Virus record (IMG/VR): IMGVR_UViG_3300001598_000004
Span: 1-64,000 of that record
Origin: a virus
Lineage: Duplodnaviria; Caudoviricetes
Reading direction: 5' to 3' (one strand)
Length of the DNA stretch: 64,000 nucleotides
Shown here: in pieces, positions 7,283-39,822 of the stretch
Layout: the number at the start of each line of letters is the position of its first letter
Numbering within the stretch: the first letter of the stretch is position 1
Position numbers and translations under genes: made by a program
The notes under the pieces: generated by a model
The model's input: only the letters and a program-made list of their open reading frames with translations
Told to the model about the DNA's origin: nothing
Databases searched by the model: none

Positions 7283-10200
7283 TCAATCGCTTAATTGATT
7301 AGTATTAATGAGGTATTGACGTAGTTTACGCACTCCAACATAGTGACTTCCGTCAGGCATACATATATGCCAAGTATTGTTATTGCGAACGTTCCAAATA
7401 ACAAACTGCCTGTTCTCTTTTCCATCAACGTATTCCTTGACAATTACAGGCATCACATGACCTTCGGTTGTTGTTGGTGGCATAGTGTGAACTGTGTATA
7501 TACCTTCACTGAGAATAGATGTCGGTTGCTTTCCTTCTTCGGCTTTGGCTGTAACGACCTTACCATCATTCGCAAACTTTTCTTCTTGCCATTTTTCATC
7601 CTCTTGTAGAGAAATCCAATCACGCCAATATGCAGAGTAGTTTTCAATTTCTCCAAGTTTCTTTATACCTTGCCTCCACAGATATGCAGATGTTGGATTG
7701 AATGGCATTATAGTACCTAAATCATCGTCAAGGTTACTCCACTGCAAATATAGGCTAATAGGTGTGTAATATGCCCATTGTACTGAAATTTCAAACATAA
7801 TACCTTTTGGTCCCAGATTGTAAAGCAACTTACCCTCGTTATTGTAGTACTTTAGCACAGCATATCCATCAGCATCAAGTCCGAACTCAATATTTGGTTG
7901 TATATTGCCTGTTTTCATCACACGCATCAAACCGCCAGATATATCAATGGTAGCACCATTCTCTTCCATAGTTTGCAAGCGACCAACGATTAGATCGTCA
8001 ATACTTGCATTTACCACGCGCATAATATCAGCCTTTATCTGCTCGGAATAAAGAATGCGTGTAGCAACGAAATCACTTACTTGTGACTTTTGCCAAGGTC
8101 TGTCTGCATCCCATTTACTATTAGCTTGGTGACTTGCATCGTGTGGATCTTTGTTAGTATGAGTATAGTGACAAAGGAAGTACTCTGTTACTCCGTCAAT
8201 GGTTCTGACAACCATATCCTGATATTCCTCACCTCTCGCACCACCCATGTACTCAACATCTTCTTTCCACTCAGATGGTCCACGAAGAATAGCACCTCTT
8301 TGAGCCTTGTTTAACACATCAACGATAGCCTCTATTCTTGTGATTTGAAATTTTGACTCGCCAAACTTTGCTATGCCCATTTGCTCTACATTCTTAGGCA
8401 AAAGCATGAATGTTATCTTTTCAATACCATCATCCTTCTTGAGTTCAACGAATGAACCTTGAATTGGATTGCCATCATTGATAGAGTAGAACAGCCTATC
8501 CGTTACCTCAGTAGTTGTATCATCGCCAACAGTCTTACGAACCTTGCAAGTAACGATGTCAACATCTGGAACACCTTCGGCATCCCTCTGGACTACTGCT
8601 ACTGATGGAATGAGTGTGTACTGAGGTGTTGATTCTCCTTCTACAGCAGATTGTAACAGCTTCCAATCAGTATTTGTATCTGATGGTTCATCGACTCTTG
8701 CTTGTTCGACCACACACTCCCATTTAGCGTTATTGTGATAAACAGTATCAAAAGTGCTACTATTGCTAACGTATGGATCAGGACTATCAGCCACATTTGC
8801 ATCCCACTCGCCACGGAAACGCTCAATTCGGATAACATTTCCTTTATAGTCGATGAAATGCAAGTCCTGTATGAATGCACCTCTTGCGTATAAGTATGGC
8901 TGTGTAGGGTTAAGGCTGTGACCGCTTATAGTCTTTATGTCATAAGGCAAACCAAAGAATGCAGCATAGTTGTTCTGCGATAACTTAGGCTGAGTAACAC
9001 CATCAAGCATCGCAATTCTCTTCTCGTTTGAAGAGAGATACCAACAAGACTGACGACGGTTCACATACTTACCATCAACCAAATCAATTATTGCCCTATA
9101 TTCAGGATTCTCATGGTTCTCTTTTGTTGCAGGAATGCTATTACCCCAACGCTGAACTACCATGAGTGATGTTGGAGAGTAGTTCTTACTGATTTGGTTT
9201 TTACCACTTGGGCAATCACTATCAGCATACATAGACACTACCATGCTGTTATCGCCTTGTGCATCCGTTGACTCCACATGAAGCCATGTAGTATAGTAGT
9301 CACCTCGTTCTCCAAGATTAGAGAGGTTATTTACGATACCTCTGAGTACATCGCCAACACAGAAAGCGTGGAAATCTGTATCGCCACGCTTCTCCATGAT
9401 AGCCTTGTATCGCCCATCGCCTAATGGTTCAAGTTCCTTAATTGTTCCACTCTCCGTAAAGACATATTCAGATTCCTCCGCAGACAAACGATTATACACA
9501 AGTTCCAGAACTCTCAAAGCTGAACGCACCTCAAGTGACTCAACCTGCATATTACCATCGTTATCAACGCCCCATCCTCTGCCAAATGACATATCGTAGC
9601 CACTCCATGCCGCACTATTTAGCATTCCATCTACGATAGCATTTTTTACAACTTCGAGCCTATCAGCAGTAAGCTTGAATGGAGTTTCATCATCAGCATC
9701 CTTGTGGAGCATCCTTTCTTCGGCATCTTGCAAAGCACGAAGAATCTGCTGTATAGTGGCAGAGGAAACACTATTGCTATTGCTTATAATACCAATCTTG
9801 CTACTGATAGACTTTACGTCCTCTCTAAGTGTCTGTGTAGCACCTTTGAGGATGTCCGTACCGATAGTAAACTCAACTTGCGAAGGAATGTCAAGCTGAG
9901 TCACAATCTTTGTGATACGGCTATCAATCTCCGAGCCATCGACATTGCGGAGAATGACGTGCTGACCTAACGACAAATTTTTGTCGTAGGTGACAGAGTT
10001 TGACTTTACATTGTAGATATTGTTGTCAGCGAGGAGCTTGACAATCTCTTTATTTGCAGCTTCAAGAAGGTCAATACGCGCAACATTGAGGTATTCCTCT
10101 CCCATTAAAATATTGAAAAGGACTACCTTATCGCCGTTATTGCTTGGGAACGCTTCACCCCATGGCTCAAGTGTGTCATCATTAGGAAGAATGAGATCAT

Positions 10201-18931: not shown

Positions 18932-19279
18932 TCAAATAGAGATAAATGTTACGCTTGGTTCATCAGAATCAGCGAGAACTATATCAGAAGGAAGTCCAGC
19001 TTCCGTTGCGATAGCCTTGATACGCTTCTCAAGTTTCTTGACATCGTAATTCTGAGAGATACCGCCGATATTCTCAGCAGTCAACTCCCTTACTCTGTTA
19101 AGACAAAGCATTGCAGCAAACGCAACAACCTTCTTCATTGAGTAGAGATAAACATCCTCAATCTCCAATGTTTCATCTTCTCCGAAACGACCATTGGCAT
19201 CAATGAACGCCTTTTCTACACTCTCGTCAGAAAGTCCGTAAGGCTCGATTTCTCCTGATATAGCTTCTCTTATTGTCAT
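18932..19279 (-). CDS. Head-tail connector
   Basis: Directly follows capsid gene; ENIGGISQNY motif. Confidence 0.55.
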   Translation of the reverse strand: MTIREAISGEIEPYGLSDESVEKAFIDANGRFGEDETLEIEDVYLYSMKKVVAFAAMLCLNRVRELTAENIGGISQNYDVKKLEKRIKAIATEAGLPSDIVLADSDEPSVTFISI

Positions 19280-19304
19280 AATAACACTTTACTTTACTTA
19301 ATGA

Positions 19305-20393
19305 CTACACCTTGTCAGTTTCAAGGATATAGTAATTATCCATACCTGTGAATACAGGTGTTGCCCACATATCGTAGTCGATGAAACGACCCTCGTCAGT
19401 ACGCCATGTACCGATAAGGTTGTTGTCAACTGTAGAGTATGTCTTGTTTGGCAGTGGATCGATAGACTCAAGAGGGTCAGAAACCTTCAATACAGCTACA
19501 CGGTCAGCACACTGAGCAACAACACGATCGTCAACTGTGAAGTTAACAGATGTGCCATCAGCGAGTGTTGCGAAACGATCCTTCTCAATCTCGATTGTTG
19601 GGAGAAGAAGTGACTCGAGGTAAGCGTTTACGTCGTTCACTGAGAGGATTGATGTAGGAGTGATGTCAGCCTTTGCGAGCTTGAGCTTGAATGAAGCAAG
19701 GATCTGGTTACTCTGGCACATCTTACGGAATGTGCGCTTAGACATACGGAGGCGACGGATAACGCGACCATGAGCCTGTGCGTAATCCTCAAGAGCCTGA
19801 ATATCGTCAAGAGGTGTAGCAGTAGCCTGACCCCATGTAGCAACCTTTGCTTGGAACTTCTTCACGTTAAGGCTGTAAGTGAAGGAAACGTTAGCAGAAG
19901 TGTTGTTTGTGCGAGAAACGGTCTGAGTACCATTGAAAAGACCCTCGAAGTAGAGCATATCAATACGCTTCTGAGGAGCGATGACAGCAGCATCGTAAGG
20001 ACGATAAAGGAACTCAATGAGCTTGCGGAACTCGTCGTTGTCCTGTGCAGGAGTGTAGCTCGCACGCTTGTCGCGATAACGACCCTCAAGGAGATAGAAC
20101 TGCTCAAGGCGGTCATTATCCATCTGCCACTTATCAGCCATGTGTGAGAGAGCGCCAGTGATCTGCTCGATTGTTGGCATCAAGTGAGTAGGCTTCTTAC
20201 CATTCTTGTCGATTACAGAACCGACCATAGCAGCAGTGTACTCTGCGAGGTTTGCCTGATAAACCTTATGAGCACTGAACTCAACATCTATTTCCTTCTT
20301 CCACTCTGCCTGATAGGTAGAGAGCTTCATGTTGTCCTGAATGAAGGCATCGAAGAACTTTGGTTCAAGGAGTTTTGAAACTATAGAATCCAT
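19305..20393 (-). CDS. Major capsid protein
   Basis: 362 aa, after scaffold and decoration genes; strongly biased codon usage. Confidence 0.8.
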   Translation of the reverse strand: MDSIVSKLLEPKFFDAFIQDNMKLSTYQAEWKKEIDVEFSAHKVYQANLAEYTAAMVGSVIDKNGKKPTHLMPTIEQITGALSHMADKWQMDNDRLEQFYLLEGRYRDKRASYTPAQDNDEFRKLIEFLYRPYDAAVIAPQKRIDMLYFEGLFNGTQTVSRTNNTSANVSFTYSLNVKKFQAKVATWGQATATPLDDIQALEDYAQAHGRVIRRLRMSKRTFRKMCQSNQILASFKLKLAKADITPTSILSVNDVNAYLESLLLPTIEIEKDRFATLADGTSVNFTVDDRVVAQCADRVAVLKVSDPLESIDPLPNKTYSTVDNNLIGTWRTDEGRFIDYDMWATPVFTGMDNYYILETDKV

Positions 20394-20995: not shown

Positions 20996-21664
20996 TTAAG
21001 ACTTTTTGTTAGCAGATCCTTCCTCTGCCATCTTGTGCATACGAGCGATAAGGTCGTCTGTTTCACCTATGCCGCCCGCCTTTGGCTTCTCAACAAAGCC
21101 TTCCTGTTGAACAAGCTGCTGCTTCATAGTAGCATAATCAGTTTCGATCTGTGAAGCTATTGTCTCAAGATCCTCTGCCTTATCCAACGAATAACGGCTA
21201 CGAAAGAAGTCGGGGATGTCTTTAACCTTTGAGTGCGCAAAGAGCTGTGCTCTGAGTTGAGTAGATTTCTCTCTTGCCTCATACTCCGCAATCTTGTCGT
21301 TGAGTTCCTTAGTTTTTGAGCTGATGCCCTCCGCAATAAGGTTCTGAACCTGCTCCAGAGTAAGACCTTCCTCTGATTTCTTCTCTGGCTCTTTGTTCTT
21401 TGCCTCTGCGAGAAGTTTCTCAACATCCTGTGGACTCTTGAAGTCTTTAAATCCTTCTCTGATTGCAGTTACCTGTCGGCTTGCACTCTTTTGCATAATT
21501 TCGGCGATTGGAATAACACTCTTAGCAAGATTGTCTATCTCTTCGTCGGTTGATGTCTCTGTGAGATTCTTACTGTAAAGATTGGCAAGACTCTCAATTT
21601 CTTCTTTGCTCAACCCTTTGTCCTTAATCAGAGGTTTAAGCACTTCTAAAAATTTCTTTGTCAT
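20996..21664 (-). CDS. Capsid scaffolding protein
   Basis: Charged helical protein, first gene of head operon. Confidence 0.6.
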   Translation of the reverse strand: MTKKFLEVLKPLIKDKGLSKEEIESLANLYSKNLTETSTDEEIDNLAKSVIPIAEIMQKSASRQVTAIREGFKDFKSPQDVEKLLAEAKNKEPEKKSEEGLTLEQVQNLIAEGISSKTKELNDKIAEYEAREKSTQLRAQLFAHSKVKDIPDFFRSRYSLDKAEDLETIASQIETDYATMKQQLVQQEGFVEKPKAGGIGETDDLIARMHKMAEEGSANKKS

Positions 21665-21695
21665 CGTTTATGTGTGATATGTTAAAAATCCGCTA

Positions 21696-21750
21696 CAAAA
21701 ATATAGTTTTTTAATCAAAAAAGAAATTTTCTGATTAATCACGAATAAAC
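21696..21750 (-). promoter_or_regulatory. Late promoter: GTTTATTCG-N38-TATTTTTG
   Basis: Bacteroidetes -7 element at 21696-21703; motif at 21742-21750. Confidence 0.7.
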
Positions 21751-21782
21751 ATCAATAAAAATCCTTTCATTTTTCCCACTTT

Positions 21783-22217
21783 TTAGCCGTTTTGCGACGG
21801 TTTTACCCTTTCTCTGGAATAACTACCAAGCAAAACTTGTTTCTTGGGCATAAAGCGTTTTATTTTACTATGGATCTTGTCAAAGCTGTATGCGTCTTTG
21901 TTCTTTATGCGGCAAAGGTGATAGTCGAGCTTTCGTATGTTTGCGCTTCGGTTGTCGTCGAGTCGCTTCTGATCCTTCGTTTCGTGGTAGCCGCCATCTA
22001 CCTCGATGATGAGTCGAAGGGAAGGAACATAGATGTCGGCATAGTATGTCTTTCTTGGTGTAGTAATCGGGTACTGAGGTAAGAACCTTAGTCCGAGCCT
22101 ACTCAACGCCCTCCCGACGGCACTCTCTGCTTTCGTAGTTGATGCTAACAATTCTCTTCGGAAATTTGAAGAAAACAGCTTTTTGTTTTTTTCTTTTTTA
22201 TTTTTTTCTTTTAGCAT
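21783..22217 (-). CDS. DUF559/Vsr-like endonuclease
   Basis: AESAVGRAL...YYADIYVPSLRLIIEVDGGYH...D..R motifs. Confidence 0.8.
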   Translation of the reverse strand: MLKEKNKKEKNKKLFSSNFRRELLASTTKAESAVGRALSRLGLRFLPQYPITTPRKTYYADIYVPSLRLIIEVDGGYHETKDQKRLDDNRSANIRKLDYHLCRIKNKDAYSFDKIHSKIKRFMPKKQVLLGSYSRERVKPSQNG

Positions 22218-22259
22218 AATAATATATATATTTTAAGCTTTCTTTTTCTTATATCTTTT

Positions 22260-22380
22260 TCTTTATCTTTATCATATGCCCCTACCCCTGCCCCAGAAGC
22301 TGGGGCTACGGCTGGGGCAGAGCCTACCCCAGAAACTGGGGCTACGGCTGGGGCAGAGCCTACCCCAGAAACTGGGGCAG
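22260..22380. repeat. Iteron-like 36-bp tandem repeat (about 2.25 copies) homologous to part of the replication gene
   Basis: Units at 22300-22335 and 22336-22371; 22-bp CTGGGGCAGAGCCTACCCCAGA is identical to 62356-62377. Confidence 0.85.
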
Positions 22381-22381
22381 A

Positions 22382-22406
22382 AATAAAGGCTTAACTCGCC
22401 TTTATT
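22382..22406. terminator. Hairpin AATAAAGGC-N7-GCCTTTATT
   Basis: Perfect 9-bp inverted repeat. Confidence 0.6.
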
Positions 22407-22440
22407 GTTGTAGTGGAGCTGAGAGCCTTGTTTTTGTGGG

Positions 22441-22448
22441 CAAAAATA
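22441..22448 (-). promoter_or_regulatory. Leftward -7 element (TATTTTTG)
   Basis: Matches TAnnTTTG in a divergent intergenic region. Confidence 0.5.
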
Positions 22449-22518
22449 CTAAGAATTATATTAAACTAATCATTTCTTCTTAAAAAATATTAAAAATTTG
22501 TTTATTTTAATGTTTTTC

Positions 22519-22555
22519 TGATTAGTTTAATATAATTTTACCCCATCAAACATTT
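22519..22555 (+). promoter_or_regulatory. Early promoter cassette 1 (TGATTAGTT-N5-TAATTTTA-N3-CATCAAACATT)
   Basis: Same architecture recurs at about 31309, 34402 and 38661. Confidence 0.65.
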
Positions 22556-22581
22556 TGTCTAACTTTTAAACATTAAGTTTT

Positions 22582-22692
22582 ATGGAGATTATCATCTTAT
22601 CAGTTCTAACAGTTTCAGTAGCTTTCATTTTCGGAAGCATAATCGGTCAGGCAATTTACAATTACTTGGCAAAACTATTAAGTGACAAATGA
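22582..22692 (+). CDS. 36-aa hydrophobic membrane peptide
   Basis: Manual translation: MEIIILSVLTVSVAFIFGSIIGQAIYNYLAKLLSDK. Confidence 0.55.
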   Translation: MEIIILSVLTVSVAFIFGSIIGQAIYNYLAKLLSDK

Positions 22693-22859
22693 GCAAATCA
22701 GACACAGAGTTAATCAACAAAGCAGAAAACACCGACGACTTCTGCGCTCTTTGCGACTTGGAAATGCTTGCCGTTTCCAGTGTCGCAAAAAGTGTGATCC
22801 ATAGCCTCGCCGTTAGAGCCTACCACTTGGAAGAGTATTCCGTTTATGGAGAAATGTAA
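22689..22859 (+). CDS. 56-aa hypothetical protein
   Basis: Manual ORF, coupled by ATGA overlap. Confidence 0.5.
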   Translation: MSKSDTELINKAENTDDFCALCDLEMLAVSSVAKSVIHSLAVRAYHLEEYSVYGEM

Positions 22860-23268
22860 CCCAAATCATAAAGTAATGGCACAGGAACGAACCGTAGGAT
22901 GCGGAAGGGGTAGATACCCTCGCACACAAGGCGATTATTCTTTGAAAAGTGAGTGGTTCAAGAACCTCTCTCCTGAGAAGCAAGCAAGACGCATCAAGGC
23001 GATTCAAGCCTTAGTCAACGCGAAAAGTCGAGGTTTCACGCAGATATGTATTGTTATTGACAAAGAAGGTAATGCAAGGAGATTTGAGAGCATCAAGGAA
23101 GCCGCAGAAGCCTGCGGTGTAACAATCTATACAGCTCGCAACAACATCTATCTGAACCGAAATAACCATAATGGTAGTAACGATCATACGACGTTGCGTG
23201 ATAAGCTTCGTTTTTACAACTACGAAAACCCTGTTTGGAAAACCAAAGCTAAAAACACTATTCTATGA
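22846..23268 (+). CDS. NUMOD1-like HTH DNA-binding protein
   Basis: RRFESIKEAAEACGV motif. Confidence 0.55.
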   Translation: MEKCNPNHKVMAQERTVGCGRGRYPRTQGDYSLKSEWFKNLSPEKQARRIKAIQALVNAKSRGFTQICIVIDKEGNARRFESIKEAAEACGVTIYTARNNIYLNRNNHNGSNDHTTLRDKLRFYNYENPVWKTKAKNTIL

Positions 23269-23579
23269 AAAGAGAATACGATTATTTTACAGCGGCATTT
23301 TTCTTTCTGCGCGTTTCATTAGGTATATTCCGAAGGATTATATGGAACGCAACAGAAAAGGTTCTTACACGCCTTCTCTATGCCGTTTTTCGCACTCCTA
23401 ATTGGCTCGTACATCATCCGTGGGCGATAGTGGCTATCTTGGTCGTCGTTATCGCGATCCAACAAGTGAAAATTATCAACTTGTCTGTAAATGCAAATAG
23501 CACAAGTCACAGGATGTGGGAAATGCAAGTCCAGCTTGACTCAGCTTGCATGACTAACTATAAACTATCAAAATACTAA
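23265..23579 (+). CDS. Membrane protein
   Basis: Hydrophobic segment PWAIVAILVVVIAI. Confidence 0.55.
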   Translation: MKREYDYFTAAFFFLRVSLGIFRRIIWNATEKVLTRLLYAVFRTPNWLVHHPWAIVAILVVVIAIQQVKIINLSVNANSTSHRMWEMQVQLDSACMTNYKLSKY

Positions 23580-23583
23580 AAGG

Positions 23584-24450
23584 ATGTATATTTTTTCGAC
23601 TGATCCAAAGCTCAAAGGGCGAGACTTCATTACTCGCAAGATGTCACAGGAAGAAGCCAACGACCTCTTTCAAGATATGACCGCCCGCGTGAAATGTATG
23701 ATGGCTGTAGTCAATAGTGCCGCATACATAACGATGATGGACGCGATAGATAAAGTCAAGAAGAAACCTATCTACAAAGGCAAAATAAAACAGCTCTTCA
23801 ATTCTGCTATAACATCATACAACAAACATGAACGCGATCTAAAATGGGGTAAATTTCAAGGTATAGAGTTCTTCGGACCGAGGAAGAGAACCGAAGATGA
23901 ATTGATGCGAGGCATAGAACAAGCTACAAGGGATGACCTGTATGATTGGTATCTTGACATAGGAGCTTGTGCTTACAAACGCACAAACAATGAGATAGAA
24001 GGTATGCGTAAGGCGATCCTCGAAGTCCTTGACAAGAATAATATCGACGACAAAGATGATTTGTCTTACATCCTTATCGCTGATACAATGCTCGAGTACT
24101 CTTGTTCTATCTACGACCAGTTGATGAAAGAGTTTAAGGCGATGTCTCAGGTAGATTTATCCGAAGCCTTTCGCCCATTCCGATTAACAAACACTTACCG
24201 ATATTATGACGATGCAATCGGAATTATCACGAAAGCTGCAATCAAAGGACATGGCAGGATCAACCTCAATGAAGAGGAAAACATAATGGAGGCATTCAGA
24301 ATCCTCGATACGAAGATGATTGAAGATGTAAACAATATGGACTCTGCCGACGAAGCAATATCTGAAAACCTAAAGATGTTGTCGCCAGAGGTGTATGCGC
24401 AATACAGGGATCTTCGTGACACTCCACAACAACCAGTAACTATTCAATAA
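23584..24450 (+). CDS. Hypothetical phage protein (288 aa)
   Basis: Long ORF in operon. Confidence 0.7.
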   Translation: MYIFSTDPKLKGRDFITRKMSQEEANDLFQDMTARVKCMMAVVNSAAYITMMDAIDKVKKKPIYKGKIKQLFNSAITSYNKHERDLKWGKFQGIEFFGPRKRTEDELMRGIEQATRDDLYDWYLDIGACAYKRTNNEIEGMRKAILEVLDKNNIDDKDDLSYILIADTMLEYSCSIYDQLMKEFKAMSQVDLSEAFRPFRLTNTYRYYDDAIGIITKAAIKGHGRINLNEEENIMEAFRILDTKMIEDVNNMDSADEAISENLKMLSPEVYAQYRDLRDTPQQPVTIQ

Positions 24451-31237: not shown

Positions 31238-31345
31238 CTTAATTTCTCTTAAAAACATTAGTTTTCTACTAAAATTATATTAAATAATGATTAGTTTTCA
31301 ATGTTATATGATTAATTCTATATAATTTTAGACCATCAAACATTT
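31238..31345 (+). promoter_or_regulatory. Early promoter cassette 2
   Basis: 23 bp (31238-31260) identical to 34331-34353; TGATTAGTT at 31288; TAATTTTA at 31323. Confidence 0.7.
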
Positions 31346-38728: not shown

Positions 38729-39822
38729 ATGGAGTCAAACTACAACCCTTACACACTACCTTGCGCTCCTTCTTTCACAATCGAGGAGGAAGAGGAAGAG
38801 CCAAAGCTCACACCAAAGCACAGGGATCTACTTAGACGTTTACAGACCCTATTTCCCGAAGCTAACATAGACGAAGATTTCATCCAAATGCGCAATAGAG
38901 GCGGTTGGGTGTATGCGGAAGGAGTAGGGATCTCTTACCGAAGAGTCACATCATCATACGCAGATGGTCCAGAATTTGACTACTCTAAGGAAATCGCACA
39001 GATCCTTTGCAACTCAGGCTTCGAGGCAGCTGGCTACTACACAAGCGGTTGTGATGAGCGCAACTTCGAGAACCACGAAACATTCTACTACATCGAAATT
39101 TCATCCATTAAATACCTATAAGCTATGACACAGACAATGTACGCGCTCGCTCCACAATTCTTCATCTTTGGCAGCGACGGCAATATCAGAGCAAACAGTT
39201 ACACTAAGCAAGTACTTGGCTCTTGGAAGAAGATTGAACCACGAAAGGATTTCATAGAAAGGCATCGCAACAAGCACACAGGGCATATAAGCCGTAGTCT
39301 CGTTTTATGCGCGACGCGTTTGTCAAAGCCTTATACATCATCGACCTTAAATCCTTCGGCACATTCACCGCCTACTCTCGACAGGAAGCAAAGGAAACAC
39401 TTTCCGACATCGCCCACAGAGAAGGCATCGCAATCAAACGGTAAAAGAGATAACAACGCGTTGAATAGCAGACGAATTTCTTATCATTTCTTTGAGGACT
39501 ACTGCTTTACCAAAAACCTGAAAGAAAGAAGTTGGCACTAACTATATAGCCGCCTGAGACAACAGGATAATCCGTAGATAGCGACACTAATTGAGGACAG
39601 CGATACAAACCTTTTCTACTTCAAAACATATCAGATATGAAAACAGCTTACGATTTTCGCGAATTAGTGCTGATTGACGATGCTACACCCTACGGCGGCA
39701 AGTCGCACAGCGAAGAAACTCTCGAAGAGTTTATGATAGAGATAAACAAATCAATTCACACCCCTATTAACGAGGTTAACAAGTGGCTCGTTGAATGTGG
39801 GATACAACCTATTAAAGCATAA
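38729..39822 (+). other. Hypothetical ORFs (38729-39121, 39125-39541 uncertain, 39637-39822)
   Basis: ORF track. Confidence 0.5.

Follow-up and report, generated by a model that had tools for sequence, protein, structure and literature searches.

The replication origin of phage lambda lies inside gene O, where iterons followed by an AT-rich tract occupy the flexible part between a DNA-binding N-domain and a C-domain that recruits the helicase loader, and in iteron plasmids (P1, with incA beside the incC origin) extra initiator-binding arrays can titrate or pair with the initiator and so restrain replication. For Bacillus phage SPP1, the published account places oriL within gene 38 and oriR in an intergenic segment, describes both as direct repeats with an AT-rich unwinding element, and shows the oriR segment together with ORFs 8-10 interrupting the head genes between gp7 and the scaffold gp11 (PMC6316719). 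A second source proposes that forks stalled at gp38-bound oriR set off the change from theta to concatemeric replication (PMC3485210), with the participation of resolvase, exonuclease, annealase and single-stranded DNA-binding protein. Here we describe a comparable layout in a tailed virus (Caudoviricetes; IMG/VR record IMGVR_UViG_3300001598_000004), of which bases 1-64,000 form the window analysed: a non-coding module at 22218-22541 repeats, 40 kb away, the GC-rich words and the A-rich tract found within the gene of the predicted replication initiator (Rep; 61935..62858, plus strand).

To our knowledge, replication origins are essentially unmapped in phages of gut Bacteroidales, the type of bacterium that hosts this phage; a literature search for second iteron origins in phages turned up only a paper on Vibrio chromosome II, and Bacteroides phage origins were not searched further. 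We propose that 22218-22541 is probably a functional second initiator-binding, origin-type module, non-coding and still used by the phage's own initiator, because distant copies co-vary with the rep repeats within each genome, because the module occurs together with its cognate Rep N-domain and because the linker encoded by the rep copy is locked in its codons. The reading draws further on a position matching that of SPP1 oriR, an SPP1-like set of recombination genes, the persistence of the array in a relative of about 98% identity, and the exceptionally AT-rich DNA at its side. The layout as such is already known from SPP1 and is, as a single finding, not surprising; judged by its sequence, the phage described here is a further example, with an initiator not detectably related to gp38.

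In four records, a distant non-coding copy follows the repeats of the genome's own initiator gene

The GC-rich array spans 22276..22380 (32% AT, against 58% for the genome) and comprises 2.6 units of 36 bp built from the 12-bp sub-units CTGGGGCTACGG, CTGGGGCAGAGC and CTACCCCAGAAA; Tandem Repeats Finder delimits it to 22287-22378 (period 36, 2.6 copies, 96% matches, score 170). Of the 13 CTGGGG words in the genome, eight belong to this array, at intervals of 12, 24 or 36 bp, and two to the rep gene. A walk with 12-mers recovered an exact 22-mer at 22312-22333 and 22348-22369 that is shared with 62356-62377 in rep, and the dyad CTGGGG-N9-CCCCAG occurs three times in the window (22312, 22348 and 62356, all one 21-mer), with none expected from 100 shuffles. 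The same walk gave an inverted 18-bp match between 22260-22277 and 62411-62428, which blastn lengthens to 45 nt at 91% identity (22241-22285 against 62403-62446, E 1.2e-11). This match falls in a minus-strand copy of the rep-linker (GATAAA)n tract at 22218..22275 (86% AT), part of a wider T-rich/A-rich left flank at 22140-22275 (80% AT) that continues into the K/E-rich start of the adjacent DUF559 gene. The junction GTAGGGG(C/T)ATATGATAAAGATAAAGA is common to the second module and rep, hairpins of the form CCCCAG-NNN-CTGGGG stand at 22291, 22327 and 22363 (none expected), and GGGG runs are present. No convincing open reading frame (ORF) was found in the region; a 36-residue ORF at 22276-22386 was dismissed as a gene, being composed of repeat units. 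An initial annotation made from the letters of the window had described a non-coding 36-bp tandem repeat with two exact copies of the rep 22-mer, an adjacent inverted 18-bp tract copy, a neighbouring AT-rich stretch, CCCCAG-AAA-CTGGGG hairpins and GGGG runs, all 40 kb from rep, and these features were recovered by the programs throughout, the distance being 36.4 kb if measured in the opposite direction around the circular 76.6-kb genome.

In the rep gene itself, the iteron words (CTGGGGCAGAGCCTACCCCAG, CCCCTA repeats and GTAGGGG; 62356..62410, plus strand) encode ..SGAEPTPEAAPTLTPTVGV.. within the protein's linker, and are followed at 62411..62480 on the same strand by an A-rich (GATAAA)9 tract (YDKDKDKDKDKDIDKEKEKRK; 83% AT, 81% purine) that is a candidate unwinding element.

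Comparison of each rep gene with its own whole record revealed four records (this genome, G000, together with G001, G006 and G062) in which the repeats of the initiator linker recur in non-coding DNA far from rep, in three unrelated words overall: CTGGGGC here, AAGGGGCT in G001 and G062, and GCAATGCAAA in G006. G001, a relative of 61.7 kb, shares 63% identity in the capsid and 46% in the Rep N-domain, and its rep linker matches non-coding DNA just upstream of DUF559, the same place as here (79% over 76 nt, E 6e-13 over the whole record), where four AAGGGGC words stand at exact 11-bp spacing and no ORF is present; the linker also matches a third, inverted site at 39.3 kb. In G006, which has a different Rep N-domain, the rep-linker word recurs at 11-bp spacing in a non-coding array 32 kb away (91% over 45 nt). 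G062, which carries the family's canonical word, has an intergenic inverted copy at 9787-9864, 98.6% identical to its rep linker over 69 nt and including both dyad and hexamer tract, between integrase and small-terminase-like genes and 9.4 kb from rep (18934-19860). With the AT tracts left out, within-genome Smith-Waterman scores were 46 for this genome, 37, 39 and 22 for G001 and 67 for G006, reached in none of 300 shuffles except for the score of 22 (1/300), and between-genome scores of 9-18 were at background.

Each genome's distant copy thus follows, at the level of sequence, the repeats of its own initiator. An old relic, one of the options raised in the initial annotation, is disfavoured because decaying DNA would not be expected to track the current repeat word of the genome's rep gene. 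The options offered beside it, in which the site is still in use as a second origin or mode-switch site or as an initiator decoy, are favoured as a class by the co-variation in four records, by the co-occurrence with the N-domain and by the SPP1-like layout and position. As a separate observation, G001 holds three copies of the origin-type module in all, of which the two non-coding ones (39309-39397 and 47100-47484) are mutually inverted and bracket an 8-kb insert between its MuF-like gene and DUF559.

The initiator linker is fixed to a DNA word

Rep comprises 307 residues from a conserved MAKR start; a disordered linker separates an N-domain that belongs to an unannotated family from a DnaD/O-like C-domain. 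Residues 167-294 match phrog_10469 ('DnaD-like helicase loader', E 1.8e-19) and phrog_345 ('replication initiation O-like', E 8.4e-8), and fold matches for this C-domain are middling (Z about 5). Pfam returned no family for the 313- or the 307-residue form at E up to 0.01 or 0.001, and none of 146 aligned relatives matched an N-terminal Pfam family; membership in the gp38/Phage_rep_org_N family was accordingly rejected, the initiator having no match to that family's profile. An initial homologue search with the N-domain returned Rep alone, and an exhaustive HMMER search then listed 3,882 representative proteins at E up to 1e-3. The AlphaFold model, built on 146 sequences, shows two confident domains joined by residues 141-177 at a predicted local distance difference test score (pLDDT) below 50, and it is precisely this low-scoring linker that the shared 22-mer, the CCCCTA repeats and the (GATAAA)9 tract encode. 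Residues 10-130 of the N-domain are modelled at pLDDT above 90, and their matches to winged-helix chains by VIA-align (CodY Z 5.2, Cdc6 Z 5.0, ORC Z 4.5-5.0, pPS10 RepA Z 4.2) are suggestive of a winged-helix fold in the model; Foldseek found no PDB match for the Rep model at E up to 0.001.

The linker peptide KPLxSPLQGAKDKDK recurs in many members of the family. To look at its DNA we used 80 loci fetched by N-terminal peptide patterns only, and hence blind to linker DNA, which yielded 74 distinct proteins, 31 of them with SP[LIFM]xG[AVS] after residue 90. Within these motifs the serine codon is AGC in 31/31 (20% elsewhere in the same genes), the proline codon CCC in 31/31 (17% elsewhere), the alanine codon GCT in 29/29 (33% elsewhere) and the leucine codon TTA or TTG in 31/31, a bias with binomial P of 1e-15 to 1e-24. 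Read as DNA, the locked codons give AAGCCCCTT with a period of 12 bp, then the dyad AGCCCCTT-NN-AAGG(G/T)GCT (in short form AGCCCCTT..AAGGGGCT), then a hexamer-repeat tract; the word of the present phage, CTGGGGC, has diverged from that of the family. Initiators of relatives with other N-domains follow the same design, a tandem repeat and then an AT-rich tract of six-base period. Because the linker is modelled below pLDDT 50 and its codons are locked in all 31 motif carriers, the rep-gene copy looks like a DNA element, with the codon lock that would be expected of an origin inside a gene.

Two further observations concern these linkers. The initiators of G011 and G012 (L097 and L098) are nearly identical except in the linker repeats, which read GNPTQP in one and NLTAVD in the other, as if the repeat cassette alone had been exchanged. 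In the viral contigs L220, L239 and L231, stand-alone non-coding modules lie just upstream of a gene start and consist of the dyad AAGGGGCT/AGCCCCTT, (GATAAA)3 and an AT-rich run; the search showed no initiator of Rep's family on the contigs of L220 and L231, both of which are short.

Occurrence among relatives and persistence in a diverged strain

A DUF559 gene is present in 76 of 80 loci of capsid relatives, mostly directly upstream of the scaffold gene, the other four being short contigs. DUF559 is thus a constant component of the head module, as opposed to a stray homing endonuclease, and since it is present whatever the initiator of the relative, we reject a further suggestion of the initial annotation, that the array is left over from an older module joining rep and DUF559. 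A hexamer tract with at least four GGGGC words within the 900 bp upstream of DUF559 occurs in 1/76, only in G001 (L029), and among the 80 capsid relatives the Rep N-domain is likewise seen only in G001 (1/1; 0/50, four of these with a C-domain match only; 0/29). The K/E-rich first residues of DUF559 overlap an A-rich tract in G000 and G001 only. As these two genomes are perhaps sister lineages, we count the co-occurrence of module and N-domain as one evolutionary observation, not two.

Contigs of four public runs aligned to 21000-23600 bear on the conservation of repeat number in relatives, a check named in the initial annotation. Run X1 contains a single 4,540-nt contig that crosses the locus; it carries 55 substitutions in about 2.57 kb (about 98% identity) and skips exactly 36 bases (22299 to 22336), that is, one repeat unit; it has no substitution in 22222-22299, and none in 22336-22394 among the differences listed. 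The array thus persists in a diverged strain, and its number of units is variable.

These data also bear on an explanation that we regard as unlikely, namely that the module is a non-functional duplicate of the rep linker, copied to a module boundary by recombination and kept alike by gene conversion, with the expansion of its repeats a result of neutral slippage. Several points that weigh against a functional module are the same ones that such a duplicate would account for. The phage encodes RecT-like and other recombination proteins, and gene conversion could keep the copies alike without any function, just as the 98.6% identity in G062 could reflect a recent duplication. Unit number differs between near-identical strains and can change by slippage, so that the expansion may be neutral; the 22-mer is direct and the AT tract inverted relative to rep, which makes the module a rearranged copy and not a simple duplicate; and the second copies of G006 and G062 lie at different module boundaries. 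Most family members, moreover, manage with one copy: G011, G012, G058 and G061 (86-100% complete) have no second copy by blastn, several other records being too fragmentary, and the canonical dyad is present in 31 of 50 other family records, none of which has a second distant copy, the only record of the 50 with the dyad at two places having it at its terminal repeat. By this comparison, the second copy is a minority trait that the initiator family can dispense with. The functional reading is weakened further by the middling support for the N-domain fold (Z 4.2-5.2, with Foldseek empty), by the leftward promoter-like motif described below, which would make the array part of the capsid operon's 5' leader, on a strand that folds strongly (z -4.3), and by the fact that we infer the role of the repeats as initiator binding sites from their position and co-variation.

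A duplicate without function, however, would have to have arisen or been retained in four records with three unrelated words, each with a non-coding copy matching its own rep gene. G000 and G001 share the place of the module, and their words have diverged yet still match their respective rep genes; the core words are exact and the spacers differ; and the module is absent upstream of DUF559 in all of the 76 DUF559 relatives but G001, and none of those 75 shows this N-domain. We accordingly retain the view that the module is probably functional.

The module lies in the head-gene gap that holds oriR in SPP1

The record measures 76,597 bp and carries a 99-bp repeat at both ends, making it effectively a circular assembly. 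The second module sits in a 364-bp divergent intergenic gap. To its left, on the minus strand, the DUF559 gene (Vsr/restriction-endonuclease-like; 21783..22217), directly downstream of the module, is the first of a leftward operon that continues with the putative scaffold gene (20996..21664, minus strand; assigned by position; phrog_5824), a 181-residue protein, the major capsid protein (19305-20393, minus strand) and tail genes; a search for related loci with the scaffold protein found none. To its right begins a 20-kb block of small plus-strand genes, past which the minus strand encodes a 1963-residue MuF/SPP1-gp7-like head protein with a C-terminal ADP-ribosyltransferase domain (42724..48615), on the other side of the head-module gap that holds the module, then the portal and terminase genes and a 7-deazaguanine gene cluster. 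Integrase, repressor and replication/recombination genes occupy 59-68 kb, and the last of these include Rep, DUF6633, SbcC-like (PHROG E 9.9e-40) and RecT-like (E 1.5e-63) proteins, a metallo-beta-lactamase metal-dependent hydrolase (E 5.6e-50), a DnaA-domain-IV-like protein and a DUF4417 nuclease; a resolvase-like match has E 3.4e-16.

In a comparison with SPP1, both phages have, as a known or candidate origin, a module of repeats and AT-rich tract inside the initiator gene and a second one that is distant and non-coding; in both, the second copy lies in a head-gene gap between the gp7/MuF gene and the scaffold gene; and both encode a RecT-type annealase, an exonuclease-type protein and a junction resolvase. 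The two differ in that the initiator here is no detectable sequence relative of gp38 by Pfam, that the present phage is of temperate type, with integrase and repressor genes, and has a gut Bacteroidales-type host whereas SPP1 is a Bacillus phage, and that we identified no helicase or helicase-loader gene here. On the side of the present phage we note as further differences that the second copy has more repeats than the first, and that, compared with the rep copy, its AT tract runs inverted and the 22-mer direct. Lambda shares the origin-type iterons and AT-rich tract within the initiator coding sequence, the C-domain here being O-like and DnaD-like by PHROG, but has one origin and is not known to have a distant non-coding copy, and its repeat words and N-domain are unrelated to those described here. 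The plasmid arrays resemble the module as initiator-repeat arrays outside the working origin, which is the decoy option; theirs, however, lie near the origin, are not known to include an unwinding element and belong to copy-number-controlled plasmids, whereas here the copy includes the AT-rich tract and stands 36-40 kb off in an integrase-carrying phage.

The surroundings also allow the module to be considered as some other DNA-transaction site that shares rep sequence, be it a hotspot of exchange or inversion or a site related to packaging or integration, which we hold to be very improbable. All second copies stand at module boundaries, the two inverted copies of G001 flank its 8-kb insert, the corresponding 20-kb block is inverted here relative to the head genes, and the copy of G062 lies next to integrase and small-terminase-like genes; yet reading of 41750-42760 disclosed no partner sequence at the opposite end of the 20-kb block, an exchange between the copy in rep and the second one would disrupt the rep gene, and nothing ties the words to the terminase (51-53 kb) or integrase (59-60 kb) genes of this phage.

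Flanking elements and possible leftward transcription

The right side of the module holds the most AT-rich stretch of the genome (22450..22541), a candidate unwinding element or operator pair: 60-bp windows of at least 90% AT occur in the genome only here, 70 bp right of the array, and at 31270-31330. A perfect 19-bp inverted repeat lies within it (22454-22472 and 22519-22537, 46 nt between the arms), placed between the array and the first rightward gene; its word is unique in the 76.6-kb genome, and it could be an operator pair or a piece of an unwinding element.

Abutting the array, an AT-rich hairpin with a 9-bp stem and a 7-nt loop (22382..22406), already pointed out in the initial annotation, forms in both RNA and DNA folds and has no T-run. 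That annotation had also placed a leftward promoter at 22441. The consensus of the Bacteroides -7 motif is TAnnTTTG, and TATTTTTG at 22448-22441 on the minus strand fits it and would direct transcription through hairpin and array to DUF559; this is a consensus match only, as the motif is not enriched (5 found, 3.2 expected) and a sigma-70 promoter scan gave 3 sites against 2.7 expected, not above shuffles. The promoter therefore stands as a motif and not as a statistically supported site, and the G4 and RNA-priming elements of that annotation likewise gained no support from the analysis.

Such a transcript raises the possibility, which we judge quite unlikely, that the array controls RNA or transcription, either as a structured 5' leader of the operon of DUF559, scaffold and capsid genes or as an operator that couples late transcription to replication through the initiator. 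The minus-strand RNA of the array region does fold strongly (-84.3 kcal/mol, z -4.3), and in G000 and G001 the module immediately precedes the gene that opens the capsid operon. Apart from the lack of motif enrichment, this explanation has against it that no Rfam 15 family comes near its gathering threshold (best 21.2 bits against 100), that an intrinsic terminator scan of 21700-22900 found no terminator-like site, and that an RNA leader explains neither the match to the rep linker, AT tract included, nor the copies that lie elsewhere in G006 and G062. None of the rival explanations accounts as simply as a second initiator-binding module for the fact that each copy matches the rep gene of its own genome.

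A model for two initiator-binding sites

The first copy consists of GGGGC-core repeats in helical phase (62356-62410) and the A-rich (GATAAA)n tract (62411-62480), carried in the linker between the winged-helix-like N-domain and the DnaD/O-like C-domain. Both parts return in the second copy, their order relative to DUF559 unchanged, with the repeat block expanded to eight CTGGGG words. In the model that we propose, the N-domain would bind the GGGGC-core words at both sites. At the rep copy, the initiator would open the AT-rich tract and its C-domain would recruit the host helicase. At the second copy, the same opening and recruitment may take place, making it a second origin; alternatively, a tight protein-DNA block may stall forks, as has been proposed for SPP1 oriR, or titrate the initiator. 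Stalled forks could then be handed to the phage's recombination genes, namely the SbcC-like ATPase, the RecT-like annealase, the metallo-beta-lactamase nuclease and the resolvase-like nuclease. Because the AT tract has been copied along with the repeats and the most AT-rich DNA of the genome adjoins them, we lean slightly towards an origin-type site over a block or decoy.

The locus thus offers two candidate sites and a candidate binding word (GGGGC core, 12-bp phase) in a group of phages with hardly any mapped origins. A very large unannotated initiator family with the origin in its own linker, its codons set by the DNA word, would make origins predictable in thousands of uncultured phages, and as the second copy recurs in the head-module gap that SPP1 oriR occupies, the fork-stall switch model may apply well beyond Bacillus phages. 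More speculatively, and as an extension that we would not expect to hold in full, the gap between the MuF/gp7 and scaffold genes could be a recurrent 'second-origin slot' in siphoviruses of unrelated hosts, where an initiator-bound block, immediately in front of the capsid genes, would stall forks and bring about the switch from circle-to-circle to concatemer replication. KPLxSPLQGAKDKDK (about 3,900 representative clusters) would then be conserved as origin DNA and not for protein function, and origin modules could be copied to new sites as self-contained cassettes of repeats and hexamer tract.

Further observations on the genome

Cumulative GC skew, which the initial annotation had suggested examining, does reach minima near 22 kb and near 62 kb, but these coincide with flips in gene orientation and were not counted as evidence. 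Searches outside the related records added little: blastn of both loci against the GenBank phage collection gave no match, an exact 19-mer of the repeat matched one viral contig in an unrelated GC-rich phage gene, which was taken as chance, and a degenerate 21-mer had 74 single matches in metagenome contigs, just one of which agreed with the window beyond the word, over 22-24 nt, and all of which were also taken as chance.

Two proteins merit mention. The 1963-residue MuF/gp7-like protein matches ADP-ribosyltransferase toxin families at its C-terminus, and capsid-targeted toxin fusions are mentioned in the SPP1 genome paper, with which a MuF-like protein ending in an ADP-ribosyltransferase would fit. 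Beyond the window, in the replication/recombination block, a 98-residue protein (genome 66971-67267) matches the DnaA C-terminal helix-turn-helix (E 2.7e-7, just under the Pfam cut-off) and could be a second DNA-binding protein of the origin region.

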